Below are positions 30,784-53,663 of a stretch of 64,000 nucleotides of DNA, piece after piece; the stretch's first letter is position 1; the number at the start of each line of letters is the position of its first letter. Source of the DNA: Vicinamibacterales bacterium. GTDB taxonomy: Bacteria; Acidobacteriota; Vicinamibacteria; Vicinamibacterales; 2-12-FULL-66-21. Made by a program: the position numbers and the translations under genes. Below the pieces are notes generated by a model. That model was not told where the DNA came from and ran no database searches. It saw only the letters and a list, made by a program, of their open reading frames with translations. The stretch covers positions 19,972 to 83,971 of the forward strand of contig DATJFE010000067.1 in assembly GCA_035495955.1 (NCBI GenBank), in the 5' to 3' direction.

Positions 30784-30994
30784 CGCGTCCCTTCATCCAG
30801 CCGATTGAATCTCCGGATTCGTCCGTTCGGATCCGGACAACTGACTCATCCGTAGTATCCCGTCTAAGTCATTGAAATATCATGGCAAGTTCCCCTTGCT
30901 TTTTTCGCGCGTGCGTTTGCATAGTGAAGTGTCCGGGTCCGTACACCGTCCGGTCGTGCTATTCGATTCGGTCTTCTTTCTGTGGAGGATGGAG

Positions 30995-34120: not shown

Positions 34121-34231
34121 GGCGCGAGGTGCGCGAGGTGCGTGGGGTGCGCGAGGTGCGTGGCGTGCGTGACGTGCGCACTCCCCGCACCCCTCGCACG
34201 CCTCGCACTTCGCGCACATCCTCGCACCTCA
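34121..34231. repeat. 9-nt tandem repeat (gcgcgaggt x6) followed by its inverted counterpart (cctcgcac-type x5): a ~110-nt imperfect hairpin ending 9 nt before the next start codon
   Basis: gcgcgaggt gcgcgaggt gcgtggggt gcgcgaggt gcgtggcgt gcgtgacgt gcgcact | ccccgcac ccctcgcac gcctcgcac ttcgcgcac atcctcgcac ctc. Confidence 0.85.
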
Positions 34232-34239
34232 AGGTCTCA

Positions 34240-36072
34240 ATGTCCCGGATGCAGAAGTCGGGCGCGGCGCTCGCGCTCGCGGTACTGATCGCGGCCTGCG
34301 GTGGCGGCGGCGGAAACAGCGGCAGCAACTCGGGCTCCAATCCTGGCGGCGGCACGACGCCCGCGGCCAATCCGTGCACCGCGGCCGGCGCGGCGGACGT
34401 GCAGGCCGTCGGAAGCGTCGCGGCCGGCGCCGGCGTGCCGGACAAGAAAACGCTCATCGACGGCAACCCGCGCGGCCGGCTCGCCGAGGCGCTCTGGATC
34501 CACCAGGAGGCGCAGCAGCGGCGCGCGGCACGCCCCGCGGGAGCGGGCGCCCAGCCGTCCCTCACCACGCCGTCTCCCGTCGCGGACGACGTCGGAGAGA
34601 TCGCCGTTCTCCAGGATCAGGGCGACCTCATACTGGCGGCGAATCCGTACGATCTCCGCAGTACGGGCATACGTTTCACCCGCAACGGCTCGAGCTACAC
34701 GCTGTCGAAGATCGACGGAACCTTCCGGACGTCGCTCGGCAACCAGGTCACGCTGGGCGACGACGACAGCACCGGCGTCGCGATTCCATTCTCATTTCCG
34801 TTCTACGGAATCGCGCAGACCTCCGCGTTCGTCAATTCCGATGGCAACATCACGTTCGGCGAGGAAGACAAGGAGAGCACCGAGCGCAACGTCTCGCGCC
34901 TGCTCGCCGGCGCCCCACGCGTCGCGCCGTTCCTCGCGGATCTCGATCCCACGTCCGGCGGAAAGATCTTCGTCAATGCCGCGGCGGATCAGTACACCGT
35001 GACGTGGTGCAGCGTACGCGGATTCGATTCGACGCGCACGACGACGGCTCAGGCGACGCTGCTGCCCGACGGAAGCGTCGAGATGAAGTACGGCGACACC
35101 ATCACGCTGACCGACGCGGTGGTCGGGATCTCGCCGGGCCACACGGGCACCTTCACGACCGCCGATTTGAGCGTCGCCGCTGCCGTTTCCTCGAGCGGCG
35201 CCATCGGCGAGCGCTTCGCGCAATCCGGCACGCTCGATACGCAGGCGGTCGCGAAGAAGTTCTACGCGTCGCATCCGGACAACTACGACCAGATCCTGCT
35301 GTGGAGCGATCAGCCGCTCATACACGACGCGTTCGCGTACGAGGTCACGGTGGCGAACGAGATCCGCGGCATCGGACAGGACATCTTCGACCTGTCGACG
35401 GCTTTCGGCAGCGCCGGACGGCTTCGCTCGCTGGTCGTGATGGACTATCTCGGAAAATACCCTGACGATCCGACGGCGAAATTCCTGGGCGAGAACAACA
35501 CGCTCAGCGTCATGGGCCAGGAGGTCGGCCACCGGTGGCTGGCGTACCTCGAGTTCCGGGATCGGACCGGCGCGCGCTCCGACGTGCTGCTCGGACGCGA
35601 TCTGGCGCACTGGAGCTTCTTCTTCAATTCCGACGCGTCGGTGATGGAAGGCAACCAGATCGAGGATCAAGGCGGCGGCCAGTTTAGGACGGTCGATGCG
35701 GTCAAGCGCTACAACCGCCTCGATCAGTACGCGATGGGGCTCGTGCCGCCGAGCGCCGTGCCGCCGTTCTTCTACGTCGAGAGCCCGACCACCACGCATT
35801 CGCGGGAGGACGCGCCGCAGATCGGCGTCTCGTTCACGGGCACGCGCCGCGACGTGCTCGTAGACGACGTGATCGCGATCGAGGGAGCGCGCGCGCCCGC
35901 GTCCGCCGATTCATCGAAGACCCATCGTCAGGCCTTCATCTACATCGTCGGCGCCGGACGCGGCACGGATTCGGGCCAGGTGGCCAAGCTCGATCGCGTT
36001 CGCTCGGCGTGGGAGCCGTTTTTCGCGCAGGCGACAGAAGGCCGCATGACGGCCGTCACGCGACTTCATTAG
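34240..36072 (+). CDS. lipoprotein with NIDO-like N-terminal region and metzincin/leishmanolysin-like C-terminal region carrying QEVGH in place of HExxH
   Basis: MSRMQKSGAALALAVLIAACGGGGG lipobox. ...VAIPFSFPFYGIAQTSAFVNSDGNITFGEEDKES...RVAPFLADLDPTSGGKIFV... then ...LSVMGQEVGHRWLAYLEF...LAHWSFFFNSDASVMEGNQ. The codons gtc atg ggc cag gag gtc ggc cac were checked directly. The upstream 37 codons of ORF 34129 are repeat-derived (RTPRTPRT). Confidence 0.6.
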   Translation: MSRMQKSGAALALAVLIAACGGGGGNSGSNSGSNPGGGTTPAANPCTAAGAADVQAVGSVAAGAGVPDKKTLIDGNPRGRLAEALWIHQEAQQRRAARPAGAGAQPSLTTPSPVADDVGEIAVLQDQGDLILAANPYDLRSTGIRFTRNGSSYTLSKIDGTFRTSLGNQVTLGDDDSTGVAIPFSFPFYGIAQTSAFVNSDGNITFGEEDKESTERNVSRLLAGAPRVAPFLADLDPTSGGKIFVNAAADQYTVTWCSVRGFDSTRTTTAQATLLPDGSVEMKYGDTITLTDAVVGISPGHTGTFTTADLSVAAAVSSSGAIGERFAQSGTLDTQAVAKKFYASHPDNYDQILLWSDQPLIHDAFAYEVTVANEIRGIGQDIFDLSTAFGSAGRLRSLVVMDYLGKYPDDPTAKFLGENNTLSVMGQEVGHRWLAYLEFRDRTGARSDVLLGRDLAHWSFFFNSDASVMEGNQIEDQGGGQFRTVDAVKRYNRLDQYAMGLVPPSAVPPFFYVESPTTTHSREDAPQIGVSFTGTRRDVLVDDVIAIEGARAPASADSSKTHRQAFIYIVGAGRGTDSGQVAKLDRVRSAWEPFFAQATEGRMTAVTRLH

Positions 36073-36177
36073 CGGGTGACGGGGGACAGGGGAGGGGTGT
36101 CGGAGGACGACCTCCCCGACGCCCGACCACCCCCAACGCCCGACCTCCGACCCCCGACGCCCGACGCCGACGCCCGT
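36073..36177. repeat. G-rich arm / C-rich arm low-complexity tract filling the whole spacer between two convergent stops
   Basis: gggtgacgggggacaggggaggggtgtcggagg acga cctccccgacgcccgaccacccccaacgcccgacctccgacccccgacgcccgacgccgacgcccg. Canonical G4 motif on + at 36074-36097. Multiple GGG tracts on the minus strand at 36110-36176. Confidence 0.85.
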
Positions 36178-38250
36178 CTATTTCCAGGACAGCGCGGCGA
36201 GCGCTTCCTTCGCCTGTCGCTCGTAGGGGCCGCCGAGTTCCACGTATCTCTCGAAATTCGCGATCGCGCGGCGGCGATCCTCATCGCCGCCGATCCATTT
36301 CTGCGTGAACTGGTCGTAGCGCTGCGATTTGGCGAGGCGCATCTGGTGGGCGCGCGCCAGGTTGAAGTATCCGAGCGCGTCCGCAGGGCCTACCGTCGTC
36401 GCGCGCTCGAAGGATTCGATGGCCGCGTCCAGCGCGCCGCGCCGGACCTGAATCACGCCGATCGCGTCCGACACTTCCGGATCCTGAGGCCAGCGCTGCT
36501 CGGCGTCGCGCAGCGTCTTGATGGCCGTCCCCTCGTCGTGCTGCTGGCCGTACGCGTCCGCGAGCGAAAAGTACACGGGCTCGAACTCCGGGACCGCCCG
36601 GCGAACGCGCTCCCATGCCTCGGCGGCGTCGTGATAGCGCTGGAGAGCGTACCGCGACAGCCCCAGCGCGTAGTGGACCCACGGCCGCGCGTCGGGCGCG
36701 GCCGCCGCGGTTGCCAGCGTGCGCGCCGCCGACTCCACGTCGCCGCGTTGATACGCGCCCCAGCCCGCCACGGCCGCGGGCGAGTCGGTGGCGGAGGGCC
36801 CGGTGGGCGCTAAACGCGCCAACGAGGCGGACGCGGACGCCGGAGAGGGCGCCACCGTGGGTGTTACGCCGCCCACTGGTTCCGTGGGATGCGGTGCTTC
36901 GGGTGCTGCAGGTGCCGGCGGAGCTGGCGCGACGGGTACTGGCGCGACGGATCGTGGTGGAGCATCCGTAGCAGCCGTCGCCCCTTTAGGCCCAGCAGGT
37001 CCCATGGTATCCGTCGTGATTCGCGCTGGCGGCAGCGCTACGTATCCGCGCCGCGCGCGCACTTTGACGCCGGGTCTGGCCACATTGACCGCGATCGTCC
37101 GGTACTTCCCGTCGAAGGCCGCTTTGGCCGGACTGTAGGCAATCAGGTAGTACGTGCCGGCGTCCTGCTGGATTTCGTCGAGCGCCCGCCCGAAATTGTT
37201 TTCGTTGCGAATCGCGAATCCGCCGGTGTCGACGGCGAGGCTGTTGGGGGCGTCCGTCTGCAGGTCGAAGTGCGGCCCGCCGCCGCTTATCGTGCTCTCC
37301 GCGGCCAACTGGTCAATCATGGTCGCCTGGGCGCCCTTGTTGAGCCCGCGCGCGTCGAGTGCGTAAAAGCGCGCTCCCGCGCGGGCGGCCAGGCCGACGG
37401 CCTGACGGACCTGCGATTCGAGCTTCTCGGCCACGAAGCCTTCCGACAGGAAAACGACCGTCTTTTGTCCCGGCAATCGCGCCAGTCCGTTGGCCAGCGC
37501 CCCGACGGTCGTCAGCGTGCTCATCGTATCTCGCTGAATATCGCCGATCAGGCGGTTTGCCTTCTCGCGGACTTCAACGTCAGGGCTCCCCCGTTTGCAG
37601 TAGTCCGGGTCGTCCACGCACGCGCGCGTGACGACGATCTCCATCGTTTCGCGGTCGTTGTCCGCGAGTCGGAATAACTCGCCCTCGTCCTGAATCCGAG
37701 GCCAGTCGCGCGTCAACTCGATCTGCCTGCTGCGCGTGTCGCCCGGCATCTTGACAGCCTGCGCCGCGGCGCGAAGCTCCTCGCGATCCGTGGTCAGACG
37801 GTTGTTGGCCATCTTCCCGTCGACGACGACCCCGCCGATGTCGCCCTGCCGCCAGCGCTCGGCGACGAACTTCACGACGGCTTCGCGCGTCCGCTGGAGG
37901 CCGCCGGCCGAGAGGTGGTTGGAATCGAAGAGGAACAGCCAGACTGCCGGTGCCGCGGAGGCTGCAGGTGCGAGCGGTGCTGCGGGGTGCGCGGCCAAGG
38001 GTGTTTCCGGAGCTGACGGATGCGCGGAAGCCGCCTGCGCGCCGACGAGGACCACGGACTGGATCTTCTGCGGCGCTCCATCTTCGGTCAGCACGAAGTC
38101 GTCCGGCCCGAGATCCATCACGAAGCGGCCGTCCTTGAACACGCGCACGTCGACTTCGACGACATCCGTTCCGGAGCGGAACGTTTGCGGCGGCTGCGGC
38201 GGCGAGGGGGCCTGCGACGCGAGCAGCGCCGCGAACACCAGCGGGATCAC
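36178..38250 (-). CDS. VWFA-related acidobacterial-type (TIGR03436-like) domain protein with C-terminal TPR repeats
   Basis: GTG 38250 overlaps the upstream stop (GTGA). VIPLVFAALLASQ signal. ...TFRSGTDVVEVDVRVFKDGRFVMDLGPDDFVLTEDGAPQKIQSVVLV..., ...WLFLFDSNHLS..., C-terminal TPR ...YALGLSRYALQRYHDAAEAWERV... Confidence 0.8.
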   Translation of the reverse strand: MIPLVFAALLASQAPSPPQPPQTFRSGTDVVEVDVRVFKDGRFVMDLGPDDFVLTEDGAPQKIQSVVLVGAQAASAHPSAPETPLAAHPAAPLAPAASAAPAVWLFLFDSNHLSAGGLQRTREAVVKFVAERWRQGDIGGVVVDGKMANNRLTTDREELRAAAQAVKMPGDTRSRQIELTRDWPRIQDEGELFRLADNDRETMEIVVTRACVDDPDYCKRGSPDVEVREKANRLIGDIQRDTMSTLTTVGALANGLARLPGQKTVVFLSEGFVAEKLESQVRQAVGLAARAGARFYALDARGLNKGAQATMIDQLAAESTISGGGPHFDLQTDAPNSLAVDTGGFAIRNENNFGRALDEIQQDAGTYYLIAYSPAKAAFDGKYRTIAVNVARPGVKVRARRGYVALPPARITTDTMGPAGPKGATAATDAPPRSVAPVPVAPAPPAPAAPEAPHPTEPVGGVTPTVAPSPASASASLARLAPTGPSATDSPAAVAGWGAYQRGDVESAARTLATAAAAPDARPWVHYALGLSRYALQRYHDAAEAWERVRRAVPEFEPVYFSLADAYGQQHDEGTAIKTLRDAEQRWPQDPEVSDAIGVIQVRRGALDAAIESFERATTVGPADALGYFNLARAHQMRLAKSQRYDQFTQKWIGGDEDRRRAIANFERYVELGGPYERQAKEALAALSWK

Positions 38251-39008
38251 TGACGCACGTTGGCGATGAAGAGGTCGTATTTGTTCTTGCCGGCGCGCTG
38301 CAGGAAGGCGATCTTCGTGCCGTCGGCCGACCACGCGGGCAGGAGCACGCTCTTCGTCGCGTCGATCTGCTGCCTCTGGCCCTGCTGATCCATCAGCGCG
38401 AGGTGGCCCGACTGGTTGGTGTAGGCGATCATCCCGAGCCGCTCCGGCGACCAGCCGAACGTGTAGCCGGGCAGGAACTGCTGGTTGATGAATTCGCCGA
38501 CAGTCTCACCCTTCAGCGTGAGCGTGAAGACGTGCAGGTGCTGCGTCTGGCTCGCTTGCGTCGTCGCCTCTTCGACCGTCGAACCGGTCGCACTGGCGGA
38601 CGTGCCTCCCTTCGCGAGAGAGCCGCCCATCGGCGACGCGGTGGCGGTGGCCATCCGCTGGTCCTCCTTGATGTCGATCCCCCACGTCTTCGATCCTGGC
38701 GCGTACTTGTTCGACTTCCACGTCCAGTATCCGCTCTCCCACTCAGGCTTCGCGGAGACCGGCTCGGGCTTGCCATCCGCGGCCGACATCACGAAGTAGC
38801 GCGGATTGGTCACCATGCCGCGCCCGTCGCGATCGGACGTCTGCAGGAAGAGCTTCGTGCCGTCGTCCGACCATGCCAGCTCCGTCGGCTCGCCTTTGAG
38901 CCTGCCGGTATCGATCTCGGCCACCCTGGCCGGCACCTCGACGGTCAGCGTCTTTGCGGACGGCGTCTGCAGGAGACCCGACGCGACGATGAGCAGCGTG
39001 AGCACCAT
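38247..39008 (-). CDS. exported PD40/TolB-like beta-propeller repeat protein
   Basis: 253 aa with signal-like MVLTLLIVASGLLQTPSA and PD40-like segments LAWSDDGTKLFLQTS and PAWSADGTKIAFLQ. GGAGG lies before ATG 39008. Confidence 0.6.
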   Translation of the reverse strand: MVLTLLIVASGLLQTPSAKTLTVEVPARVAEIDTGRLKGEPTELAWSDDGTKLFLQTSDRDGRGMVTNPRYFVMSAADGKPEPVSAKPEWESGYWTWKSNKYAPGSKTWGIDIKEDQRMATATASPMGGSLAKGGTSASATGSTVEEATTQASQTQHLHVFTLTLKGETVGEFINQQFLPGYTFGWSPERLGMIAYTNQSGHLALMDQQGQRQQIDATKSVLLPAWSADGTKIAFLQRAGKNKYDLFIANVRQ

Positions 39009-39017
39009 GGAATCCTC

Positions 39018-41522
39018 CTAGCGGGCTCGCTCGATTTGCGCGAGCTTTGCGTGAAGCTCGGTTGAGTCCGGCAGCGCCTGCAGTCCGGCGCGCACGGCCT
39101 GCACGGCAAGCGCCGGCTGCGCGATCCGCAAGTACGCGTCGGCCAGCGCCAGATGCGCGGGCACCATCTTCGGATCGATCGACGCCGCGGCGCGCCACGC
39201 GCCGATCGCCCGCCGATGATCGCCCTGGCCTTCCCATGCCCAGCCGAGAACGAACGCCACCGAGGCGTTCGTCTGATCGAGGTGCATCGCGGCATCGAGC
39301 TCCGCCGCAGCCCCGGCGTAATCGCTCTGCGCGAATGCCTCGAATCCTTTCGTCGCCCGAACGGCGGCGGGCGCCGTTGAAAGCCTCAGCGATGCCCGCG
39401 CGCCGCGGACGAAATCCCCGTTCAGGATGTCCGACGGCCGGAACGCCGACGGAAGATCGATCGGGGCAGGCGGCGCGGTTCCGGCCGACACGTCCAACTC
39501 GCGCGACACGTCCGCGATTGTCTCGGAGCCGTCCGTGACCTTGACGCGCGCCACATACGCGCCGGGCGGAACCTTTGCGAGTGGAAACGAGAACCTTGCG
39601 CGGCGCATCACGCCCGCGCGCGCATCGACGGTGTCTCCCATCTCCGCACGGACGGTCTCGGTGGGGCCGCCGGCCTCGGCCGGCACGAGCGACGCCGTGG
39701 CGACGAGTCCCTTCAGTTGTTCCGCCGTCCGGCCATAGGCTTCGATCATGCCCGCCAGACCATCGTCTGCGTACGCCCGCGCGCGCACGGGAAGCGCGCC
39801 GTTCATTGAACCAAGAATCAGATCGCTGACCGCCACATCGGGTCCCGACAGCGGGCGCACGTCGAGCTTGCGATCCGCGCTGCCCACGAGGCCACCCGGT
39901 TCGCGCACGACGACGCGCATCAGATACGCGCCGGGCGGCACTTCGAACTGGACCCGAAACGCCGACCGCCCGGTCGCCGCGCCGGCCGCGGCCGCCGCCG
40001 GCAGCGGCATCGTGTCGGTCCCGCTCGACGCGACGCGCCCGTCTCTGGTGTTGCGGACGACGAAGACGACGTCCGCGGATTCGTGCGTCGCGTCCCGCAC
40101 GGGCAGGTCGGCGTCCAGGGAGAGGACGATGCGGGCGAGCGTGGGATTGTCGGAGCGAAGCGCGTACGTCGTGTAATCGACGCGCAGCGCCTGCTGCGCG
40201 AACGGCGCGGCCAGCGCCGCGTCGATTGTTGCGCGGCGATCGAATCCCGCGGCGGCTTTCGGCACGGCATACCCCGTGCGCGCGCTGACGTGCGCGCCCG
40301 CGCGCGTGACCCTGACGGAGACGTGCCGGTACTGGCCCGGAGAGGCGAGCGCCGTACTGCCGGGCGTGAAGCCGACGAGGTAATAGTCCTGCGCCTGATC
40401 GGCGATGCGATCGAGCGCCGCGTCGAGATGGCTGACGGCGTCTGGAATCAGCGCGCCGTCGGTTTCGGCCGCAAGGCTCCCCAGCGGCTCGAGGCGCGCC
40501 TGAATCTCGCTCGAGGTGCTGGTCGAGGACACTTCCGGCTGACTCGCATCGCCCTCGGCCCGGCGATTCAGATCGAAAGCATAGAACACGGCGTAGGTGT
40601 CGGCGGCGGCCGCCTCGACCTGTTCGAGCTCGCGCGTGACGCTCTCCTGGTGGAAGCCTTCCGAAAACAGGACAACGATCTTTCGTCCCTCGATCGCGCG
40701 ATACTGCTCGATCACGTCCGACAGCCGCTGCGTGAAGTCGCGCGATGCGGCGTCGGCCTGCGCGACGATCGTCCGCGCGTTCTCGAGAATCGCGTGCCGC
40801 ACGGCCGCGGGGTCCTCGGCCTGCCGTTCGGCCGCGCGGCTCGTGACGCGCGTCCCCGTCGGATCGGCGGCGCCGCCCACGTCCGCTCCCGCAGCCAGCG
40901 GCTGGCGTGTCATGACGTCGGTTGTGATGCGATCGTTGCCGCCGGCGATCTCGTACGCCTCCTGCAGCGTAAGGTTGCCCACGGCCGTGGTGACGTTGCG
41001 CTCGAGTCCTCCGCGGACTTTGGCGAGCTCCGCGATCGCACGGTTGCGATCCGCCGTGAAGCCGACCGATGGACCGGGTCCGGGGATGCCGACGAGGGCG
41101 ACGCGATCCGACGGCCGCACGCGCGTCCTGATGAAGGTCTCGGCGGCGCGACGCGCGGTCTGTTCGTTGCCGGGGGCGATGTGCGATTGATCGAACACGA
41201 GGAGATAGAGATGGCCCCGCGGCGCGCCGCGATTGCTCGAGACTTCGGCAGACACCGAACGCAGCGCGGCGTCGGCGTAGAGGCCGGCGGGCTCCTCGAT
41301 GTGCTGGAACAGCAGCAGCGGCAGGACGTGTCCGTCCTCGATGACTTGCACCTCGCCAGGGCGCACGTCGGCGATGGGCCGTCCGGAACTGTCGGTCACG
41401 CGGATGTCGAAGCGGACGAGATCCACGCCCGAGTGAAAGACGGGCTGGCCGGTCTGCGCCGCCATCGATACGGACGCGGCGGCTGCCACGATCGTCGCGA
41501 GCGGAAGTGCGCGCACCTTCAA
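39018..41522 (-). CDS. VWFA-related acidobacterial-type (TIGR03436-like) domain protein with C-terminal TPR repeats
   Basis: 834 aa. MKVRALPLATIVAAAASVSMAAQ signal. ...VFHSGVDLVRFDIRVTDSSGRPIADVRPGEVQVIEDGHVLPLLLF..., ...YLLVFDQSHI..., TPR tail. The TTG start at 41522 overlaps the upstream stop (TTGA), so the start is uncertain. Confidence 0.82.
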   Translation of the reverse strand: MKVRALPLATIVAAAASVSMAAQTGQPVFHSGVDLVRFDIRVTDSSGRPIADVRPGEVQVIEDGHVLPLLLFQHIEEPAGLYADAALRSVSAEVSSNRGAPRGHLYLLVFDQSHIAPGNEQTARRAAETFIRTRVRPSDRVALVGIPGPGPSVGFTADRNRAIAELAKVRGGLERNVTTAVGNLTLQEAYEIAGGNDRITTDVMTRQPLAAGADVGGAADPTGTRVTSRAAERQAEDPAAVRHAILENARTIVAQADAASRDFTQRLSDVIEQYRAIEGRKIVVLFSEGFHQESVTRELEQVEAAAADTYAVFYAFDLNRRAEGDASQPEVSSTSTSSEIQARLEPLGSLAAETDGALIPDAVSHLDAALDRIADQAQDYYLVGFTPGSTALASPGQYRHVSVRVTRAGAHVSARTGYAVPKAAAGFDRRATIDAALAAPFAQQALRVDYTTYALRSDNPTLARIVLSLDADLPVRDATHESADVVFVVRNTRDGRVASSGTDTMPLPAAAAAGAATGRSAFRVQFEVPPGAYLMRVVVREPGGLVGSADRKLDVRPLSGPDVAVSDLILGSMNGALPVRARAYADDGLAGMIEAYGRTAEQLKGLVATASLVPAEAGGPTETVRAEMGDTVDARAGVMRRARFSFPLAKVPPGAYVARVKVTDGSETIADVSRELDVSAGTAPPAPIDLPSAFRPSDILNGDFVRGARASLRLSTAPAAVRATKGFEAFAQSDYAGAAAELDAAMHLDQTNASVAFVLGWAWEGQGDHRRAIGAWRAAASIDPKMVPAHLALADAYLRIAQPALAVQAVRAGLQALPDSTELHAKLAQIERAR

Positions 41523-43690
41523 CGAATTTTAACCTGCCGCGCTTTCTCGGGTTCTCCGAACATCGTCCACAGTTGAGCCGCCAGCGCGCGTCCTTCGGGC
41601 GTCGGCGAGGCCCGCAGCAAATCGTCGATCGCCCGCTCGGAATCGGCGTCGCGCCCCATCGCGCGATACAGCATGGCGAGGCCGGCGCGGGCCCGGGTGT
41701 TGTGCGGAAAGAGGCGAATCTCTTCCTGGAAGCAGGGCTCGGCCTCCGGGTAGCGCTCGAGGTGAGCGAGGGAATCGCCGAGGTAATAGTTGAGCTCGTT
41801 GATCTGGATGGTGCGTCCGCGAAGCGCGTCGCGGGCCCGCATGAACGGCCCGAGCGCCTCGGCGTACCTGCCCTGGTTGTAGGCGATCAGCCCCTCGACG
41901 AACAGCGGCATCGGCAGCGTCGGATCCGCCTGCTGGGCGAGGCGGGCTTCGCGCAACGCGGCGTCGGGGTCGTGCCGCGCCAGCGCGATCTTGGCGAGCA
42001 GCTCGTGCGCCGCCGCGGGCGCGACGCTCACGGCGAGCTCCGCATGCTTCTGCGCTTCGTCGAGGCGGCCCAGTCGGAGCAGTCCGCCGCCCGCGCCGAG
42101 CAGGCTGCCCGCGTCCTTCGGATTGCGCTTGATCACTTCCCGGTACGCGCGCACGCCGTCTTCAGTGAGTCCCTGGCGCAGGCAGACTTCCGCGAGCTGG
42201 AGCCACGCGTCCGTCATTTCGGGATCGGCGGCGAGCAACTCGCGATAAAGAACCATCGCATCCGCGAACTTCAGCGCGCCCGCCAGGTCCGACGCGCGAC
42301 GATACTTTTCGAGGACCTGAATTTTGTCCTTCGGATCCGGCAGCGAATCGCCCGGCAGCGACAGCGACGCGCTGCTGCCGGTGCCGACGTAGCCCAGCGC
42401 CGCGAGGCGCTGGCGATCCTGCTCGTCGACGGCCGCCGGCGCCGCGATCGACGTCTTCGCAATCATCGATTCGAGCGCGCCGCGCATCGCCTGGCGGACC
42501 TGGGGCCGATCGGCGCCGATCGACTGCGATTCGGATCGATCGCGCTCCAGGTCGTACAGCTCGTCGCGCGGAGCGCGGATGAAGTGATACCGCGAATCGA
42601 CGAGCCCGTAAAGCTCGCTCCATCCGAAGTGGTACCGCGAATAGAGCGCTTCGGAATAGATGGGCGCATCCTGCAGGGCGCCGGTACCTTCGAGCAGTGG
42701 TCGCAGCGACCGGCCCCGGAGCTCCGTCCGCGCGGGCGCGCCGGCCAGATCGAGGATCGTCGGCGCCAGATCGATGTGCTGCACCGGCGCCGCCACGCGG
42801 CGTCCTCGATGGCGTCCGGGCAGCTTGACGATCAGCGGGACGCGGGTGGTTTCCTGATACAGAAACAAGCCGTGCTCCTGCTCGCCGTGATCGCCGAGAC
42901 CTTCGCCGTGATCCGCGAGCAATACGATCGTCGCGCGATCGTAGAGACCCGCGGATCGCAGGCGATCGAGGAAACGGCCGACCAGCTCGTCGCTGTAGGC
43001 GATCTCGCCGTCGTAGGGGCTGTAGGCGGCGAAGCGGGCCGGCGGCGCGTACGGCTTGTGCGGCTCGTAGAAGTGCAGGAACAGGAAGAACGGCTTCGCG
43101 CGATCGCGCGCGTCGATCCAGGAGATCGCCGCCGCCAGCGTCTTGTCGCCGCCGCGCTGAACCTGGCCGATCGATCGCTCGCCGGACGAAGCCGGCATGT
43201 CGCTGTCGTACGTATCGAATCCCTGATTGATCCCGGTTGCCGCGCGCAGCACGTACGCGGAGACGAACCCGCCGGTCGGCCACCCGCGCTCCTGCAGCGC
43301 GCGCTGGATGAACCATTGGCCCTTCTTGACCGTGAAGCCGACGTTGTCACGGACCCCGTGCTCGAAGGGGAGCTGGCCCGAAAGGAGACTGGTGTGGGCC
43401 GGAAGCGTCTGCGGCGCGTGCGACCAGGCGTGCTCGAACACGACGCCTTCGGCCGCCAGGGTATCGATGTTCGGTGTCCGGACTTTCGTATATCCGTACG
43501 CCGGAAGATGATCGGCGCGGAGCGTATCGATCGAGATCAGGACGATCGGTCCCGGCGCCGGCGGCCGCGTTGCCCGCCAGAGCGCCCAGGCCACGCCCAG
43601 AACGATGACCAGCGTGATGGCGATCCATGCAGCGCGCCTCGCCCCTCGCGCCTCGCGTCTCGGACCTCGCGGCTCGCGCCTCGCGCTCAT
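41519..43690 (-). CDS. sulfatase-like (alkaline phosphatase superfamily) hydrolase/transferase with N-terminal membrane anchor and C-terminal TPR domain
   Basis: ...IVLISIDTLRADHLPAYGY...NIDTLAAEGVVFEHAWSHAPQTLPAHTSLLSG... (Thr where Cys-type sulfatases have Cys), ...LLADHGEGLGDHGE..., then about 300 aa of TPR. ATG 43690 overlaps the upstream stop (ATGA). Confidence 0.85.
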   Translation of the reverse strand: MSARREPRGPRREARGARRAAWIAITLVIVLGVAWALWRATRPPAPGPIVLISIDTLRADHLPAYGYTKVRTPNIDTLAAEGVVFEHAWSHAPQTLPAHTSLLSGQLPFEHGVRDNVGFTVKKGQWFIQRALQERGWPTGGFVSAYVLRAATGINQGFDTYDSDMPASSGERSIGQVQRGGDKTLAAAISWIDARDRAKPFFLFLHFYEPHKPYAPPARFAAYSPYDGEIAYSDELVGRFLDRLRSAGLYDRATIVLLADHGEGLGDHGEQEHGLFLYQETTRVPLIVKLPGRHRGRRVAAPVQHIDLAPTILDLAGAPARTELRGRSLRPLLEGTGALQDAPIYSEALYSRYHFGWSELYGLVDSRYHFIRAPRDELYDLERDRSESQSIGADRPQVRQAMRGALESMIAKTSIAAPAAVDEQDRQRLAALGYVGTGSSASLSLPGDSLPDPKDKIQVLEKYRRASDLAGALKFADAMVLYRELLAADPEMTDAWLQLAEVCLRQGLTEDGVRAYREVIKRNPKDAGSLLGAGGGLLRLGRLDEAQKHAELAVSVAPAAAHELLAKIALARHDPDAALREARLAQQADPTLPMPLFVEGLIAYNQGRYAEALGPFMRARDALRGRTIQINELNYYLGDSLAHLERYPEAEPCFQEEIRLFPHNTRARAGLAMLYRAMGRDADSERAIDDLLRASPTPEGRALAAQLWTMFGEPEKARQVKIR
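43632..43687. repeat. cctcgcg-type short tandem repeat forming the first ~19 codons of the sulfatase-like gene
   Basis: gcgcgcctcgcccctcgcgcctcgcgtctcggacctcgcggctcgcgcctcgcgctc. On the minus strand it encodes MSARREPRGPRREARGARRA. Confidence 0.75.
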
Positions 43691-45792
43691 CGACCGAGCA
43701 TCCGCTTCACCCTGGCGACGTCGGCCGCGTATTGTGCGGGCGGAGCCTCCCGCACGAAGCGCTCGAGGTACGGCCGCGCCTCGTCATGCCGGCCCGCGGC
43801 GTCGAGCTCCACCGCAAGATTGTAGAGCGCGTCGAAATCGCTCGGCGACAGTTCCACGGCGCGCTTCCAGTGCGCGAACGCCTCGTCGCGCTTGCCGGCC
43901 TTCATCGCGACGACGCCGAGGCCGTTGTGCGCCCTGGCGGATCGGGCGTCGACGGCGAGGGCCTGTTCGAGCGCGCGCTGCGCTCCGGCGAGATTGCCGC
44001 GCTGCATCTCCAGCGTCCCGATATTCTCCAGCGCCTGAACGTTGGCGGGGCTTTCGTCGAGCGCGCGGTGGAACATGGCGTCCGCGCGGTCCGTTCGTCC
44101 GTCGCGCGCGTAGGCGATCCCGAGCGCGTTCAGCGCATCCGGATCCGCGTGCGTCTGCGACGCGAGCGGCTCGAGCAGCGCAATCGCGTCCGCGGGACGT
44201 CCCGCTTCGGCCAAATACGATCCGAGTTGCGTCGTCATGTCCGGTTCGATTGCGTCCGCGTGAAAGGCGCGCTCGAGCGTCTGGATCGCCGCGCGGGCCT
44301 GGCCGTTCTGCCACTGCAGGAACGCGAGATTCCGATAGCCGATCGCCATCGACGGCCGCTGCTCGATGATCCGTTCGTAGGTGCGCAGCGCCTCGTCCCG
44401 CCGCCCGTGCTGCCAGGCGTCGATGCCCTCCTGGATCCAGCGATCGAGCTGCGTGAGCTCCTTCGGATCGTCGTTCCGCGTGTAGTTCGCCCGCCGCGAC
44501 GCGCGGCCGGACGTGTAGCCGAGCGACTGCAGCTTTGCGGCAACCTCGGGCGCTTCGGCAACGCGTTCGCCCGGTGGCGCCGCATGGAAGTCTTGCAGCC
44601 TCGCTTCCAGAACACGCCGCCGGTCGGCGCGCTGATCCGCGAGGTTCGCCTTCTCGGAGGGATCGCGGTCCAGGTCGTACAGCTCCGGAATCGGCAGGTC
44701 GATGTACTTCTGGCGTCCCGCCACCACGCCCGACAGAGGCGCCCACCCTCGATTGAGCATGGCCGACATCGCTTCGAAGTACGACGCCACGTCGCCCTCA
44801 TTCGGCAGAGACGCGCCTGTCAACAGCGAGCGGCCCTGGAGGCCGGATGGCCGCGCGATCCCGACCGCATCGAGGAGCGTCGGCACGAGATCGATGTGAC
44901 GCGCGGGAAATCGGGAGACCGTCCCCGCCGTCGTCCGCGCGCCGAGCTGCGCGAGAATCAGCGGCACGCGCAGCGTCGTTTCGTACGCGAAGAGGCCGTG
45001 CGTCAGCTCGCCGTGATCGCCGAGCCCTTCGCCGTGATCCGACGTGATGACGAGGAACGTCGGACGGGACGATCGGCCGACCGCATCGAAGAGCGGCCCC
45101 AGCGCCTGGTCGACATAGGCGATCTCGCCGTAATACGGGCGGCCCGCGTATTCGGCGTCGAACGGCGCGGGCGGCGTGTACGGCGCGTGCGGATCGAAGA
45201 AGTGCACCCAGGCGAACCAGCGTCCCGGCTGGCGGCCGATCCACGCGAGCGCCGCGGCGACCACGTCACCGGCCGGCCGCTCCGCCAGCGTGAAGTCCGA
45301 CGAGCTGCCGCTCCGGCCGAAACGGTCGTCGTAGACGTCGAATCCGGCGTCGAGCCCGAAGGTTTTCGCGAGCGGAACGCCGCCGACGAACGCGCCCGTC
45401 GCAAAGCCGTCCTGTTTCAGCCGCGTCGCGATCGTCGCCGTCCCCGGCTTCATGCGATAGCCGCTGTGATCCCGAACGCCGTGCTCGTATGGATACAGCC
45501 CGGTGAGGATGCTCGCGTGCGACGGCCGGGTCAGGACTGCATGGGCGTGCGCGAAGTCGAAGCGGACGCCGCGGGCGGCGATCGCGTCGATGTTCGGCGT
45601 GTGGGCCTGGCCGCCGTAGACCGACAGCGCGTCGCCGCGGAGCGTATCGATCGTGACGAGGAGAACGTTCTGATCGGATCTGCGGGTGAGACTCGAGGAC
45701 TCGCGGCCGTGACAGCCCCAGGCCATCACGCCGAGCGCGATCGCGCCAAGCGCGCGCAGGGCCGCGCCCGTGCGGCCGAACGGCATCCTCAT
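43687..45792 (-). CDS. sulfatase-like (alkaline phosphatase superfamily) hydrolase/transferase with C-terminal TPR domain (paralog of the next gene)
   Basis: ...VLLVTIDTLRGDALSVYGG...NIDAIAARGVRFDFAHAHAVLTRPSHASILTG..., ...ITSDHGEGLGDHGE..., TPR tail. ATG 45792 or 45786 chosen (MRMPFGRTGAAL signal). The ORF extends to 45834. Confidence 0.85.
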   Translation of the reverse strand: MRMPFGRTGAALRALGAIALGVMAWGCHGRESSSLTRRSDQNVLLVTIDTLRGDALSVYGGQAHTPNIDAIAARGVRFDFAHAHAVLTRPSHASILTGLYPYEHGVRDHSGYRMKPGTATIATRLKQDGFATGAFVGGVPLAKTFGLDAGFDVYDDRFGRSGSSSDFTLAERPAGDVVAAALAWIGRQPGRWFAWVHFFDPHAPYTPPAPFDAEYAGRPYYGEIAYVDQALGPLFDAVGRSSRPTFLVITSDHGEGLGDHGELTHGLFAYETTLRVPLILAQLGARTTAGTVSRFPARHIDLVPTLLDAVGIARPSGLQGRSLLTGASLPNEGDVASYFEAMSAMLNRGWAPLSGVVAGRQKYIDLPIPELYDLDRDPSEKANLADQRADRRRVLEARLQDFHAAPPGERVAEAPEVAAKLQSLGYTSGRASRRANYTRNDDPKELTQLDRWIQEGIDAWQHGRRDEALRTYERIIEQRPSMAIGYRNLAFLQWQNGQARAAIQTLERAFHADAIEPDMTTQLGSYLAEAGRPADAIALLEPLASQTHADPDALNALGIAYARDGRTDRADAMFHRALDESPANVQALENIGTLEMQRGNLAGAQRALEQALAVDARSARAHNGLGVVAMKAGKRDEAFAHWKRAVELSPSDFDALYNLAVELDAAGRHDEARPYLERFVREAPPAQYAADVARVKRMLGR

Positions 45793-46110
45793 GCTGGGCG
45801 GCGACGACGCACAACGCAGAGTCACAGAGGTCACTGAGACGCACGGAGGACGATCTTTGTGCGTCGGCAGGCTGTCGCGTTGCTCGGGCCGGCGGCAAGC
45901 CTCACGATCGGTCCCACCGTGGGGAAGCGCCTTCGCCTAGACGACACGGGGATCAGACGCAGTCGCCGCACGCGTGACCAGTCGTGAGGCCATTGACCGG
46001 CCGCGGCGGGCTCACCCTCTGATCTCTGTGCGTCTCTGTGCACTCCGCGCCTCTGTGTTGATCTGTTCCGTTGACTTCACAACCACGCGCGTCGGTCGGA
46101 ATTCAAAAAG

Positions 46111-46116
46111 TATAAT
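46111..46116 (+). promoter_or_regulatory. TATAAT box 9 nt upstream of the ATG of the next gene (possible leaderless or very short leader)
   Basis: aaaaagtataatccagcggtgATG. There is no Shine-Dalgarno sequence between the box and the start. Confidence 0.35.
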
Positions 46117-46125
46117 CCAGCGGTG

Positions 46126-48546
46126 ATGTCGAGCCTTCACTCCGGGACCGTTCTCGCGAGCGCCGCTGCGCTGGCGATCTTGGCCACGCCGGCGTTCCAC
46201 GGCGTGGCGCGAGCCGCTTCGAGCGGGCAGCCGGCGCAGCGCGCCTCGGCGGCGACGCGGACCGGCATCGATCTCGCCAGGCTCGACGCCATTCCGGCGA
46301 TCGTCGAGCAGGCAATCGCCGACAAGAAGCTGCCCGGCGCGGTCATACTCATCGGCCGCGGCGATCGTGTCGTCTATCGGAAAGCGATTGGCCGCCGCGC
46401 CGTCGAACCGTCGTCCGAGCCGATGACGCTCGACACCATGTTCGACCTCGCGTCGCTGACGAAAGTCGTGGCGACGACGACGAGCGTGATGAAGCTCGTG
46501 GAGGAGGGCAAGATTCGTCTGAGCGATCGCGTGTCGACGTTCGTTCCCGGTTTCGAGCGCCACAACAAGACGGACATCACGATCCGCCACTTGATGACGC
46601 ACACCTCCGGTCTGCGTCCCGATCTGGATCTCGCCGATGCATGGAGCGGATATGACAAGGCGATCGAACTGGCGATCGACGAAGCGCCGACCGCGCCGCC
46701 CGGCGAGCGATTCGTCTACAGCGACATCAATTACCTTCTGCTCGGCGATATCGTGAAGCGCGTCGGCGGTATGCCGCTCGAGCGGTTTGCCGCGAAACAC
46801 GTGTTCGCGCCGCTCGGGATGAGCGACACGATGTTCCGGCCGCCGGCGGCCCTCGCGGCGCGCATCGCCCCGACCGAGCGGGTCGACGGCCGGATGCTCC
46901 GGGGCGTCGTGCACGATCCGACCTCGCGCCGGATGGGCGGGGTCGCCGGACACGCCGGGCTCTTCAGCACGGCGGCGGATCTCTCGATCTTCTGCCGCAT
47001 GCTGCTGAACGGCGGACGCTACAACGGCGTCCGGGTGCTGGCCCCGTTGACCGTCGCGAAGATGACGGCGCCCGCGAGCGCGCCCGGCGATCCGAACGTC
47101 CGCGGGCTCGGCTGGGACATCGACTCGTCGTTCTCCGCGAACCGCGGCGAGCTGCTGCCGATTGGATCGTACGGCCACACGGGCTTCACCGGGACGTCGA
47201 TCTGGATCGATCCGGCGACGCGCGAGTTCGTCGTGTTCCTTTCCAACCGCGTGCATCCCGACGGCAAGGGCGACGTGACGCCGCTGCGAGCCCGGATCGG
47301 AACGATTGCCGCGGCCGCCATCACCGACGTGGCGCCCGACATCGCGCGCACGCGGCCGATGACCGGCCGCGACTTCGGCGCGTCGGGCCCCGCGCCCGCT
47401 CGGCCGAAGACGGGCCCCGTGCTGACCGGACTCGACGTGCTCCGGGCCGGCGGCTTCGCGCCGCTGCGCGGGAAGCGCGTCGGCCTCGTTACCAATCAGA
47501 CCGGCCTCGCGCGGGATCGCGAGACGACGATCGACCTGCTGTTCAACGCGAAGGACGTCAGGCTGGCGGCGCTCTTCAGTCCGGAGCACGGCATCCGCGG
47601 CGTGCTCGACGCGAATGTGCCCGCCGAAGTGGACGAGAAGACGAAGCTGACGATCAACTCGCTCTACGGCGAGACCGAGAGGCCGACCGCCGCCATGCTC
47701 GAAGGGCTCGACGCGATCGTCGTCGATCTGCAGGACATCGGCGTGCGCTTCTGGACGTACGCGACCACGACGGCCTACGTGCTCGAAGAAGCCGCGAAGC
47801 GCAGGCTCCCGGTGTTCGTCCTGGATCGGCCGAACCCGATAGACGGCTGGCAGATCGAGGGGCCGGCGCTCGACAGGGAGTCGAGCGGCTTCACCGGCTA
47901 TTTTCTCGCGATGCCGATCCGGCACGGGATGACGCTCGGCGAGCTGGCACGCCTCTACAACGCGGAAAACAAGATCGGCGCGGATCTCACCGTCATCGGC
48001 ATGAAGAACTGGCGGCGCGACGACTGGTTCGACGAGACCGCGCTGCCCTGGATCAACCCCTCGCCGAACATGCGCAACATGAACGCGGCGGCGCTCTATC
48101 CGGGCATTGGCGCGATCGAAGGGACCAACATCTCGGTCGGCCGCGGCACCGACACCCCGTTCGAGCACGTCGGCGCGCCCTGGATCGACGGCGCCCGGCT
48201 GTCCGACACGCTCAACGGGCGGGCGCTGCCGGGCGTCCGCTTCTATCCCGTCCGCTTCACGCCGGCGTCGAGCAAGTACGCCGGCGAGTCGTGCGGCGGC
48301 GTCTTCATCATCGTGACCGATCGAACGGCGCTGCATCCCGTGCGCGTCGGGCTCGAGATCGCCGCCGCGCTCAACCGGATGTATCCGGCGCAGTATCAGC
48401 TCGAGACCGCGGCGCGCCTTCTCGGCTCGCGCGAAACACTCGCACGGATCAGGAACGGCGACGATCCGGCCGCGATCGCGGCGTCGTGGGCGCTCGCGGA
48501 ATCGAAGTGGCGATCGTTGCGTTCCAGATATCTCCTCTATCCGTAG
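46126..48546 (+). CDS. fusion protein: N-terminal beta-lactamase-fold serine hydrolase (AmiE/AmpH-like) + C-terminal DUF1343/NamZ-like exo-beta-N-acetylmuramidase domain
   Basis: Signal-like N-terminus. SxxK motif DLASLTKVV, YSDIN, HTG in GSYGHTGFTGTSIWIDP. Then ...TGLDVLRAGGFAPLRGKRVGLVTNQTGLARDRETTIDLLFNAKDVRLAALFSPEHGIRG... is typical of DUF1343. Confidence 0.85.
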   Translation: MSSLHSGTVLASAAALAILATPAFHGVARAASSGQPAQRASAATRTGIDLARLDAIPAIVEQAIADKKLPGAVILIGRGDRVVYRKAIGRRAVEPSSEPMTLDTMFDLASLTKVVATTTSVMKLVEEGKIRLSDRVSTFVPGFERHNKTDITIRHLMTHTSGLRPDLDLADAWSGYDKAIELAIDEAPTAPPGERFVYSDINYLLLGDIVKRVGGMPLERFAAKHVFAPLGMSDTMFRPPAALAARIAPTERVDGRMLRGVVHDPTSRRMGGVAGHAGLFSTAADLSIFCRMLLNGGRYNGVRVLAPLTVAKMTAPASAPGDPNVRGLGWDIDSSFSANRGELLPIGSYGHTGFTGTSIWIDPATREFVVFLSNRVHPDGKGDVTPLRARIGTIAAAAITDVAPDIARTRPMTGRDFGASGPAPARPKTGPVLTGLDVLRAGGFAPLRGKRVGLVTNQTGLARDRETTIDLLFNAKDVRLAALFSPEHGIRGVLDANVPAEVDEKTKLTINSLYGETERPTAAMLEGLDAIVVDLQDIGVRFWTYATTTAYVLEEAAKRRLPVFVLDRPNPIDGWQIEGPALDRESSGFTGYFLAMPIRHGMTLGELARLYNAENKIGADLTVIGMKNWRRDDWFDETALPWINPSPNMRNMNAAALYPGIGAIEGTNISVGRGTDTPFEHVGAPWIDGARLSDTLNGRALPGVRFYPVRFTPASSKYAGESCGGVFIIVTDRTALHPVRVGLEIAAALNRMYPAQYQLETAARLLGSRETLARIRNGDDPAAIAASWALAESKWRSLRSRYLLYP

Positions 48547-53228: not shown

Positions 53229-53663
53229 ATGGCGACTGTGGATGCACCGCGCGATGATCGGACGACGGATTCCTCGTCTCCGGCGAAACCGGCCGTCGAG
53301 GAGCGCCGCGTCAGCGCCTGGATCGGGCAGGGCGTCGTCGTCGAGGGGAAAATCACGAGCACGCAGGATCTCCGGATCGACGGCGCGGTCCAGGGCACGA
53401 TTGAGGTCGGCCGCCATGGACTGGTGATCGGAGCCAGCGCCGCCATTCGGGCCAACCTCTCCGCCAGGTCCATCCTCATCAGCGGCGCCGTGACCGGGAA
53501 CGTCGCGGCAACCGAGAGAATCGATCTTCAGCCCACGGCGTCGGTGGAAGGCGACGTCAGCGCGCCGCGCGTGGCCATGGCCGACGGCGCCGTCGTCAAG
53601 GGCAAAGTCGAGGCAGGCGGCAATCGCGTGGCGAAGCCGCGGACGGGCGAGCCGGAAGCTTGA
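53229..53663 (+). CDS. bactofilin family cytoskeletal protein
   Basis: ...WIGQGVVVEGKITSTQDLRIDGAVQGTIEVGRHGLVIGASAAIRANLSARSILISGAVTGNVAATERIDLQPTASVEGDVSAPRVAMADGAVVKGKVE shows DUF583 beta-helix periodicity. aaggag lies before the ATG. Confidence 0.88.
   Translation: MATVDAPRDDRTTDSSSPAKPAVEERRVSAWIGQGVVVEGKITSTQDLRIDGAVQGTIEVGRHGLVIGASAAIRANLSARSILISGAVTGNVAATERIDLQPTASVEGDVSAPRVAMADGAVVKGKVEAGGNRVAKPRTGEPEA

Follow-up and report, generated by a model that had tools for sequence, protein, structure and literature searches.

What would a bacterium do with five exported or membrane-anchored proteins, two of them sulfatase-like, two carrying von Willebrand factor A (VWA)-like domains and one a predicted partial propeller, encoded by genes so tightly packed that most of their start and stop codons overlap? 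This question is raised by a minus-strand locus at 36178-45834 of a 64,000-nucleotide stretch of DNA from a Vicinamibacterales bacterium (contig DATJFE010000067.1, assembly GCA_035495955.1; hereafter the window, that is, the whole stretch at its full length), where the listing of open reading frames (ORFs) and their translations place five genes, here termed A to E. The reading that we tentatively favor, as plausible rather than probable, is that of periplasmic ester hydrolysis coupled to an adjacent TonB-dependent receptor (TBDR), with the proteins that carry tetratricopeptide repeats (TPR), VWA domains and PD40 repeats serving as a scaffold. The products of A and B would be single-pass inner-membrane-anchored, metal-dependent esterases, most likely assembled as an A/B heteromer with a TPR arm on each subunit. 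A substrate would cross the outer membrane through the CarboxypepD_reg-type TonB-dependent barrel, the A/B pair would hydrolyze phospho- or sulfo-ester groups on it, and C, D and E would act as non-catalytic binding or scaffold subunits joined by their TPR arms. Co-transcription, the heteromer, hydrolysis rather than transfer, the class of substrate and the link to the transporter are all points that we infer.

Are the five genes real, and do they form one unit? The window is GC-rich (0.62-0.69), and spurious ORFs are therefore frequent; genes A to E have a GC content of 0.80-0.91 at third codon positions (GC3) against about 0.5 at second positions, and are thus real coding frames. Gene A (43687-45792) encodes 701 residues from an ATG at 45792, its ORF also opening at a GTG at 45834, and is followed by B (41519-43690, 723 residues), C (39018-41522, 834 residues), D (38247-39008, 253 residues) and E (36178-38250, 690 residues, within a longer ORF that extends to 38334). 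At the A-B junction, stop and start codons overlap as ATGA (43687-43690, reading ..GGTCGATGAGC..), a 4-nucleotide overlap that is also called in two relatives (L002 and L004). The corresponding overlap is TTGA at the B-C junction (41519-41522, ..CGTTGAAGGTG..) and GTGA at the D-E junction (38247-38250, ..CGTCAGTGATCC..), while C and D are separated by 9 nucleotides (39009-39017, TAG-GAGGATTCC-ATG), with a Shine-Dalgarno-like AGGAGG overlapping the TAG stop of C. An earlier sequence-only reading of this DNA had proposed five minus-strand genes with these four junctions, all of which are exact in the sequence. The start of A at 45792 agrees with the N-termini of its orthologs, and that of E at 38250 is backed by a 690-residue NCBI protein (P0121, 'VWA domain-containing protein', 100% identical) and agrees with the length of the E orthologs (690-694 residues). 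The TTG start of C yields MKVRAL, for which the ortholog counterpart is MKMRAV, and a second possible start, a GTG, lies two codons downstream. Simple scans of the operon strand saw no terminator-like or promoter-like site inside the operon, and the only element given by Rfam as a known RNA was a tRNA at 53.7 kb. The operon is bounded upstream by a divergent plus-strand gene for a NamZ fusion protein and downstream by a convergent plus-strand gene for a 647-residue protein (H647). By sequence comparison, the five genes constitute a genuine operon, conserved by vertical descent in Vicinamibacterales (Acidobacteriota) and presumably co-transcribed, that encodes a predicted periplasm-facing module.

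What kind of enzymes are A and B? Both match the sulfatase family PF00884 in Pfam (E-values of 7e-37 and 5e-44, respectively), and they also match Phosphodiest, SGSH_C (the sulfatase C-terminal subdomain) and, in the final ~260 residues, numerous TPR models. They are paralogs with 37% identity (E-value of 2e-78) and constitute one of the two paralog pairs that had been proposed, the other being C and E with 27% identity (E-value of 2e-22). The best PDB match is that of choline sulfatase (PDB identifier 7oz8; E-value of 1.7e-33), in whose alignment the T-L-P-A-H of B falls on the S-T-P-A-R signature, the Thr of the A/B motif being aligned with the Ser/Cys of the sulfatase signature, and the N-terminal Asp and DHG metal ligands are kept. 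In gene A, IDTLRGD (45631-45651), T-R-P-S-H at the formylglycine position (45517-45531) and DHGEGLGDHGE (45007-45039) are accompanied by DPHAPY, and gene B carries IDTLRAD (43511-43531), T-L-P-A-H (43394-43408) and DHGEGLGDHGE (42881-42913). The motifs IDTLRxD, T-x-P-x-H, PHxPY and DHGExLGDHGE occur without exception in the full-length A and B orthologs aligned, and the Thr that had been assigned to the nucleophile position from the window alone is accordingly invariant. These invariant motifs predict metal-dependent activity, and both paralogs are probably active enzymes.

The S1 sulfatases need [CS]-x-P-x-R for the formation of formylglycine, which a Thr cannot give (PMC5066984). Since an invariant T-x-P-x-H replaces this signature, A and B are not formylglycine sulfatases; judged by their motifs, they are Thr-type members of the alkaline-phosphatase superfamily and not sulfatases in the defined sense. 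With S1 enzymes such as choline sulfatase and GlcNAc-6-sulfatase (PDB identifier 5g2v) they have in common the fold, PF00884, SGSH_C, the metal Asp (IDT..D), the PHxP His and the DHG ligands. They differ from them in the signature, in being membrane-anchored, in the TPR tail of ~260 residues and, by our reading of the 7oz8 alignment, in having a His where sulfatases have a Lys after DHG. The N-termini of A and B consist of a basic stretch and ~20 hydrophobic residues, with the catalytic domain 10-20 residues later. In A the hydrophobic anchor (residues 16-26) precedes the catalytic domain and a C-terminal TPR region of ~260 residues, and in B an Arg-rich N-terminus and one transmembrane anchor (residues 22-38) are followed by the catalytic domain ~10 residues on and then by the C-terminal TPR region. 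A lipoprotein nature of A is ruled out, as Cys26 varies among orthologs, and the N-termini are thus anchors and not lipoprotein signals.

Does this pair hydrolyze or transfer? To our knowledge, every characterized Thr-type PF00884 enzyme is a transferase that modifies the envelope, and A and B could likewise, in line with the cell-surface modification that the sequence-only reading had suggested, act as LtaS, EptA or OpgB do: a phospho-substituent (for instance phosphoethanolamine or phosphoglycerol) would be taken from a lipid of the membrane and passed to a polymer or protein of the envelope, with C, D and E as a periplasmic scaffold. LtaS, EptA/MCR-1, OpgB and YejM/LapC resemble A and B in the Thr at the nucleophile position and in an inner-membrane-anchored, periplasm-facing catalytic domain. 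The short spacing between anchor and catalytic domain would place the active site near the membrane surface, the assembly of envelope polymers often involves TPR proteins (PrsT being the best match for TPR in the NCBIfam scan), and there are weak NCBIfam matches to LtaS, EptA and YejM, at 16-31 bits against cutoffs of 400-1200 and thus short of the family level. The similarity to the transferases is, however, marginal (27-31 bits for LtaS and EptA) in comparison with the 131-166 bits scored by the best NCBIfam matches, arylsulfatase and choline sulfatase, themselves far under the equivalog cutoffs. Moreover, A and B have one anchor helix as against about five in LtaS and EptA and are devoid of their multi-helix lipid-binding module; they carry a hydrolase-type C-terminal subdomain and a TPR tail that those transferases do not have; no glycosyltransferase, flippase or polymer-export gene is present among the Pfam-scanned ORFs of the locus; and transfer to the envelope leaves the recurrent TBDR neighbor described below unexplained. 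We regard such envelope modification as the less likely reading, but as a serious rival. Hydrolysis is preferred over transfer because A and B are far closer to hydrolytic sulfatases, keep SGSH_C and do without the multi-helix lipid-handling module; and, since this affinity is joined by a TBDR that recurs as a neighbor in unrelated taxa, a role in uptake and processing appears at least as likely as one in envelope modification.

How far is the gene set conserved? Related loci were mapped with tblastn, using three contexts from exact look-up and 42 from a scan in which each GTDB species was represented by one genome, the latter all from metagenome-assembled genomes (MAGs). Sixteen loci with enough flank, in MAGs of Vicinamibacterales, contain the complete set of five families, and no D ortholog situated beside C or E is short of a partner where the contig permits checking. 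In a near group (D at least 54% identical) the order is NamZ(-) A B C D E H647(-) TBDR(-), and the gene calls show the same 4-nucleotide overlaps and gaps of 8-39 nucleotides. In a distant group (identities of 34-40% for D, ~50-53% for A and B, ~45% for C and ~40% for E) the five families are kept in the order B-A-C-D-(D')-E, with the TBDR kept and H647 absent. D is duplicated in three of the distant-group genomes, and an expanded variant (L014) holds B, B', C, D, a partial E', E and an extra A. The A and B orthologs separate into two clean orthogroups, and likewise C and E, with identities of ~30% between A and B and ~25% between C and E, and of 40-77% within groups; the two duplications thus predate the order Vicinamibacterales. 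Conservation of the gene set, the lack of which the sequence-only reading had named among its refuting conditions, is therefore found across Vicinamibacterales, where the set survives rearrangement.

Conservation alone could also mean that the five genes are mere neighbors with separate functions, inherited together and compressed by genome streamlining, and it is true that synteny around the locus is conserved in general across the order and that the related loci all come from this single order. Against this, three of the four junctions are overlaps of a stop with the next start, and the set is kept through an order swap, duplications and changed flanking genes. Furthermore, sulfatase-like/TPR genes are linked anew, in a distant locus (L048), with a gene of TIGR03436, the family of C and E; D is linked anew with VWA and TPR genes in two others (L027 and L037); and B and A occur naturally as a single fused protein. 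In view of these overlaps, of the fusion and of associations that recur independently, we consider mere proximity very improbable.

Further hints at function come from more distant relatives of the enzymes. The catalytic domain of B, searched against 1.84 billion representatives, finds 26,341 clusters (at 50% identity) with E<=1e-30, some of which may be true sulfatases. TxPxH is present in 143 of the 150 best representatives, most of which have ~700 residues, corresponding to an enzyme plus TPR, and such proteins are named 'sulfatase-like hydrolase/transferase' or 'arylsulfatase A-like enzyme/TPR' in the databases. The contexts of seven distant members were inspected, and their GC contents span 36-70% in the five with DNA (53% in L048 and 62% in L050). 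A TBDR, two enzymes, a GWxTD protein and a second TBDR follow one another on one strand in L047. L048 has a TBDR, an A-type enzyme, a second enzyme and an uncharacterized protein, and divergently a B-type enzyme, a CarboxypepD_reg+TPR protein and a TIGR03436 protein (E-value of 1.6e-40). The contig of protein P0394 has a TBDR, two enzymes (with a 4-nucleotide overlap), an FG-GAP/ASPIC protein and a TPR protein, and in L050 a TBDR lies a few genes away from three tandem enzymes, A-type and B-type among them. The order in L052 is ASPIC, TPR, enzyme, GWxTD+TPR, B-A fusion, one minus-strand ORF, TBDR, TPR, ASPIC and TPR. The remaining two contexts hold a fused double enzyme (L049) and an enzyme that follows pilus/type II secretion system-like genes (L051). 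Thus, a TBDR is adjacent or within a few genes in five of the seven; encoded on the strand of the enzymes, it adjoins them in L047, L048 and the P0394 contig and is one gene away in L052.

The corresponding protein of the window is a TBDR-like outer-membrane barrel (CarboxypepD_reg + Plug + OMP_b-brl_4) encoded on the plus strand at 30872-33886, and wherever a related locus has sufficient flank, such a TBDR adjoins the operon, even if its position changes. The TBDRs of L050 and L048 match it over the full length with 33-34% identity (E-values of 1e-160 and 1e-140, respectively), whereas an unlinked Vicinamibacterales TBDR matches it with 27% identity (E-value of 9e-77) and the other barrel of the window with an E-value of about 1e-20. 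Since the TBDRs linked to the enzymes in distant taxa are nearer to it than an unlinked member of its own order, a particular barrel subfamily seems to travel with the A-type/B-type pair, and the TBDR of the window is a probable functional partner of the operon. The natural B-A fusion (P0243, at 10001-13954 of L052), which is devoid of the membrane anchor of A, argues for A and B working side by side in the same compartment. The last ~170 residues of this fusion look frameshifted. Two other proteins, P0245 (at 9907-14556 of L049) and P0251, comprise full double sulfatase-like/TPR units in one polypeptide.

Coupled hydrolysis and uptake, our favored reading, draws on the presence of A-type and B-type copies together in the distant taxa L048 and L050, on the L048 string of sulfatase-like/TPR, CarboxypepD_reg+TPR and TIGR03436 genes and on the marks of export. 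That all five products bear an export signal or anchor had been proposed before, and this holds in the form of signal peptides on C and E, membrane anchors on A and B and a short, hydrophobic N-terminus on D. The locus also resembles in part TBDR utilization loci, such as the polysaccharide utilization loci (PULs) of Bacteroidota with periplasmic sulfatases and the carbohydrate utilization containing TBDR (CUT) loci, in that a barrel lies beside exported sulfatase-fold esterases, with a divergent gene for a periplasmic glycosidase (the NamZ fusion).

Several points weigh against it. The expression, interaction and activity of all members are predictions. TPR-tailed VWA proteins are atypical of catabolic loci, and the known Thr-nucleophile members of PF00884 (LtaS, EptA, OpgB) are envelope-modifying transferases. 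The wider synteny is conserved as well, cytochrome-oxidase assembly genes adjoining NamZ even in the distant group, so that adjacency within the order is weak functional evidence on its own. No TBDR is present in two of the seven distant contexts (L049 and L051). CarboxypepD_reg barrels are common here, at least two being found among the 30-odd annotated genes of the window, and the TBDR of Vicinamibacterales lies on the opposite strand and is thus not co-transcribed with the operon. In this last respect the locus differs from PULs, as it does in enzymes that are not formylglycine sulfatases and in its want of a SusD-like protein, a regulator and an inner-membrane transporter or permease.

What could C and E contribute? 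Both score well above the curated cutoff of TIGR03436 (144.5 bits for C and 184 bits for E, against 81.25), and no VWA model of Pfam reaches either in a Pfam scan. C consists of a cleavable signal peptide, an N-terminal beta-sandwich, the TIGR03436 VWA-like domain, two PPGAY-type segments (39906-39938 and 39537-39569), which we read as beta-rich repeats, and ~120 residues of TPR. E has a signal peptide, a beta-sandwich, the TIGR03436 VWA fold, a helical insert, a Pro/Ala-rich linker and ~195 residues of TPR; an invariant Cys pair in its helical insert (37597-37626) also fits, alongside the signal peptide, with an exported product. The sequence-only reading had ended four of the five proteins in long TPR regions; TPR is indeed present on A, B, C and E, though that of C is short. 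As in other members of TIGR03436, an Acidobacterial VWA family, C and E show an N-terminal FRSGVDLV..V.V beta-sandwich and a C-terminal YY..Y.P...R.G.V..R.GY tail, and they depart from it in the addition of TPR tails and in having F-D-x-x-H for DxSxS. A literature search found no functional study of this family. An AlphaFold2 model of residues 1-440 of E (pLDDT of 73.9) has only VWA domains as top Foldseek matches (BatB, PDB identifier 3ibs, first, then integrin I domains and ANTXR), the BatB match having a probability of ~1.0 but an E-value of merely 5.6e-3, and the VWA (Rossmann-like) fold of E is supported by this prediction.

The metal-ion-dependent adhesion site (MIDAS) of a VWA domain is replaced by FDQSHI in C (residues 110-115; 41178-41195), and E has FDSNHL at that position (residues 108-113; 37912-37929) and SEGF further on (37435-37449). 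The degenerate MIDAS motifs that had been described from the window are thus both present, and their F-D-x-x-H is kept in the orthologs: F-D-[QE]-x-H-I in all C orthologs and [FL]-D-x-x-H-[LIM] in E orthologs, with F-D-[ST]-x-H-L in the near group. The fourth-strand position, ordinarily 'DG', is usually SEGF in both families, and the D-x-S-x-S...T...D pattern of a MIDAS is found in neither set of orthologs. The TIGR03436 protein linked to the sulfatase-like gene in L048 is likewise degenerate at the MIDAS. In contrast, VWA genes near D paralogs (L027, L037, L031) retain the canonical D(V/T)SGSM, and those that directly follow a D paralog also keep SDGED at the fourth-strand position. As F-D-x-x-H is conserved in orthologs while the VWA genes linked to D paralogs stay canonical, the degenerate MIDAS of C and E is, on these alignments, a derived state that has been conserved rather than a product of decay.

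Of the five products, D is the best conserved (58-84% identity with its orthologs). Its sole Pfam match is a single, marginal PD40 repeat (22.4 against a threshold of 20.9), and the PDB structures best matching its AlphaFold model (pLDDT of 83.5, pTM of 0.76) in Foldseek are TolB propellers, at a low TM-score of 0.29. These observations fit a partial TolB/PD40-like propeller of about four blades. The earlier assignment of D as a PD40 propeller needs to be narrowed to a partial propeller with one marginal repeat. D shares PD40-type blades with TolB, but has 253 residues as against ~430, has no TolB N-terminal domain, has about four blades in place of a six-bladed propeller and scores 28.3 bits with TIGR02800 (TolB) against a cutoff of 343. 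A search with D gives 423 homologs at E<=1e-3, the best 120 of which are at least 59% identical, have ~250 residues and come from soil metagenomes and Vicinamibacterales MAGs. The loop SPMGGxLAKGG (residues 125-135; 38604-38636) is nearly invariant in 61 orthologs, and residues 124-144, which hold it, are the sole long stretch of the model with a pLDDT below 50 (predicted disordered); the loop may be a conserved flexible interaction motif. In L027 (9962-13644) and L037 (586-4271), a D paralog is followed by a Big_7+VWA gene (DVSGSM) and then a TPR gene, with gaps of 3-10 nucleotides, and by its domain content this string is a split version of D and E.

Do these folds instead point to a structural or adhesive assembly, in which the VWA-TPR proteins and D would make up a periplasmic or surface scaffold akin to Bat, Tol-Pal or adhesins and A and B would mainly be TPR-bearing structural or binding subunits? 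The Bat (Bacteroides aerotolerance)/MoxR-VWA systems resemble the operon in encoding exported VWA together with TPR, and BatB and TolB are the best structural matches of E and D, respectively. In addition, the TPR regions weakly match the YbgF/CpoB, BatC, PilW and GltE models, and D'-VWA-TPR triads occur without any sulfatase-like gene. On the other hand, the operon departs from Bat in the lost MIDAS, in the fusion of VWA and TPR in one protein and in the presence of sulfatase-like enzymes and a PD40 protein. MoxR AAA+ and DUF58, the defining Bat partners whose absence had been remarked upon, were not found by Pfam in the operon or in another 28 ORFs of high GC3 located from 1 to 53.1 kb (the ORF at 53229-53663 and the region of 54-64 kb lying outside this set). 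C and E have lost the MIDAS on which VWA-type adhesion depends, the Foldseek matches of both E and D are weak, and the catalytic and metal motifs of A and B are invariant in both orthogroups and kept in most of the distant representatives, which argues for catalysis. Because of these invariant motifs, we hold a purely structural role to be improbable.

Candidates for a closer link between D and Bat were rejected. Genes beside the D paralogs of L038, L039 and L043 were suspected, by their sizes, to be Bat/MoxR genes; in L043 they are those of acyl-CoA dehydrogenase, MeaB, glyoxalase, PNP and PfkB, and the genes of L038 and L039 match these in size. The D paralogs of these three loci adjoin unrelated metabolic genes. 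The VWA gene of L031 is separated from its D paralog by a GDSL lipase gene and was dropped as a member of a Bat-type set.

Is the operon, then, one instance of something wider? It combines known kinds of module, namely TBDR-linked exported esterases and VWA-TPR envelope modules, from common domain types. Neither the literature nor PADLOC nor Rfam yielded a described equivalent, in keeping with the earlier remark that no characterized system has such a composition, and a defense function was discarded as PADLOC gave no meaningful match. More broadly, and as a possible though rather doubtful extension, we propose a widespread system of hetero-paired Thr-nucleophile esterases, devoid of formylglycine and provided with TPR docking arms, which would be physically or functionally coupled to a dedicated TBDR subfamily. 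With MIDAS-less VWA, PD40, GWxTD and FG-GAP/ASPIC proteins as accessories, it would take up compounds of organic phosphorus or sulfur across the envelope and de-esterify them, in Acidobacteriota of the soil and in bacteria related to these. We found no prior description of such an esterase-TBDR system.

Vicinamibacterales are abundant in soil and mostly uncultured. The TxPxH sulfatase-like/TPR family is very large, and databases label its members sulfatase or arylsulfatase though the sulfatase-defining residue is lacking; identifying what A and B hydrolyze or transfer would correct a large block of annotation. Cooperation with the TBDR, if true, could reveal a route of organic phosphorus or sulfur turnover in soil, and a functional assignment here would give a first handle on TIGR03436.

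The operon faces its upstream neighbor across a conserved, promoter-like motif, TGGATTATACTTTTTG (46104-46119, on both strands), between NamZ and gene A. A sigma-70 promoter scan gave no match, and this -10-like motif emerged instead from the comparison of loci: TGGATTATACTTTTTG is exact in six relatives and has one mismatch in a seventh. It reads TATACT on the operon (minus) strand and a perfect TATAAT on the NamZ (plus) strand, where it sits 6 nucleotides ahead of the GTG start of NamZ, suggesting that the NamZ transcript has no leader. The distance from the motif to the start codon of A is at most ~10 nucleotides in L004 and L012. The motif is probably a divergent -10 region shared by NamZ and the operon, and possibly a back-to-back promoter of both. 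The NamZ gene itself (46123-48546, plus strand) encodes a fusion of a beta-lactamase-family protein with the N- and C-terminal domains of NamZ, an exo-beta-N-acetylmuramidase. It holds its divergent position beside the operon across Vicinamibacterales, and its domains suggest peptidoglycan scavenging or recycling next to the operon.

In the window, the motif and the start of A are separated by an extra segment of ~290 nucleotides (45793-46100) that is missing from L002, L004, L007, L012 and L013; L016 has a long gap at the same place. The segment contains repeated CACAGAG units and an imperfect inverted repeat with arms of 37 nucleotides (45812-45848 and 46024-46060) that are 78% complementary; it folds with -147 kcal/mol (z = -2.3), has no Rfam match and may be either a palindromic insertion or a structured leader. 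In the distant group, NamZ and the first sulfatase-like gene have a small gene of 200-320 residues between them (L017, L024, L025, L036 at 16609-17322, and L001), and it recurs in L048 (12584-13555); the window has none. Its domains are CarboxypepD_reg and TPR in L001 and L048 (Pfam), with the TPR part seen in L036 (NCBIfam), and it has its N-terminal domain type in common with the TBDR. An IS630-family transposase gene (HTH_Tnp_IS630 + DDE_3; 1755-2697) lies just upstream of the operon in L001, where the operon genes are in many pieces, reflecting either a decaying copy or a poor assembly.

On the downstream side, the H647 gene (34129-36072, plus strand), a 647-residue ORF convergent with the operon between the TBDR and E, has no family match in Pfam, NCBIfam or PADLOC. 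Its product has 67-74% identity where it lies between E and the TBDR, which is in the near group only. H647 was rejected as a conserved partner, being without a family match, absent from the distant group and dissimilar to a 638-residue protein beside the L048 pair. The long ORF begins with VREVRG/TPRTPR repeats, probably upstream of the true start; it also includes LIAAC, which resembles a lipobox and precedes a linker rich in Gly, Ser and Asn, as well as a GQEVGHRW motif. The convergent intergenic region between E and H647 (36116-36176) contains three exact copies of CCGACGCCCG and 21-nucleotide C-rich direct repeats, and a terminator-like hairpin was not detected in it. The second CarboxypepD_reg/OMP_b-brl_4 barrel of the window (6534-9818, plus strand) has a gene for an S15 X-Pro dipeptidyl-peptidase two genes upstream and one for an M20 peptidase next downstream, and looks like a separate peptide-uptake locus.

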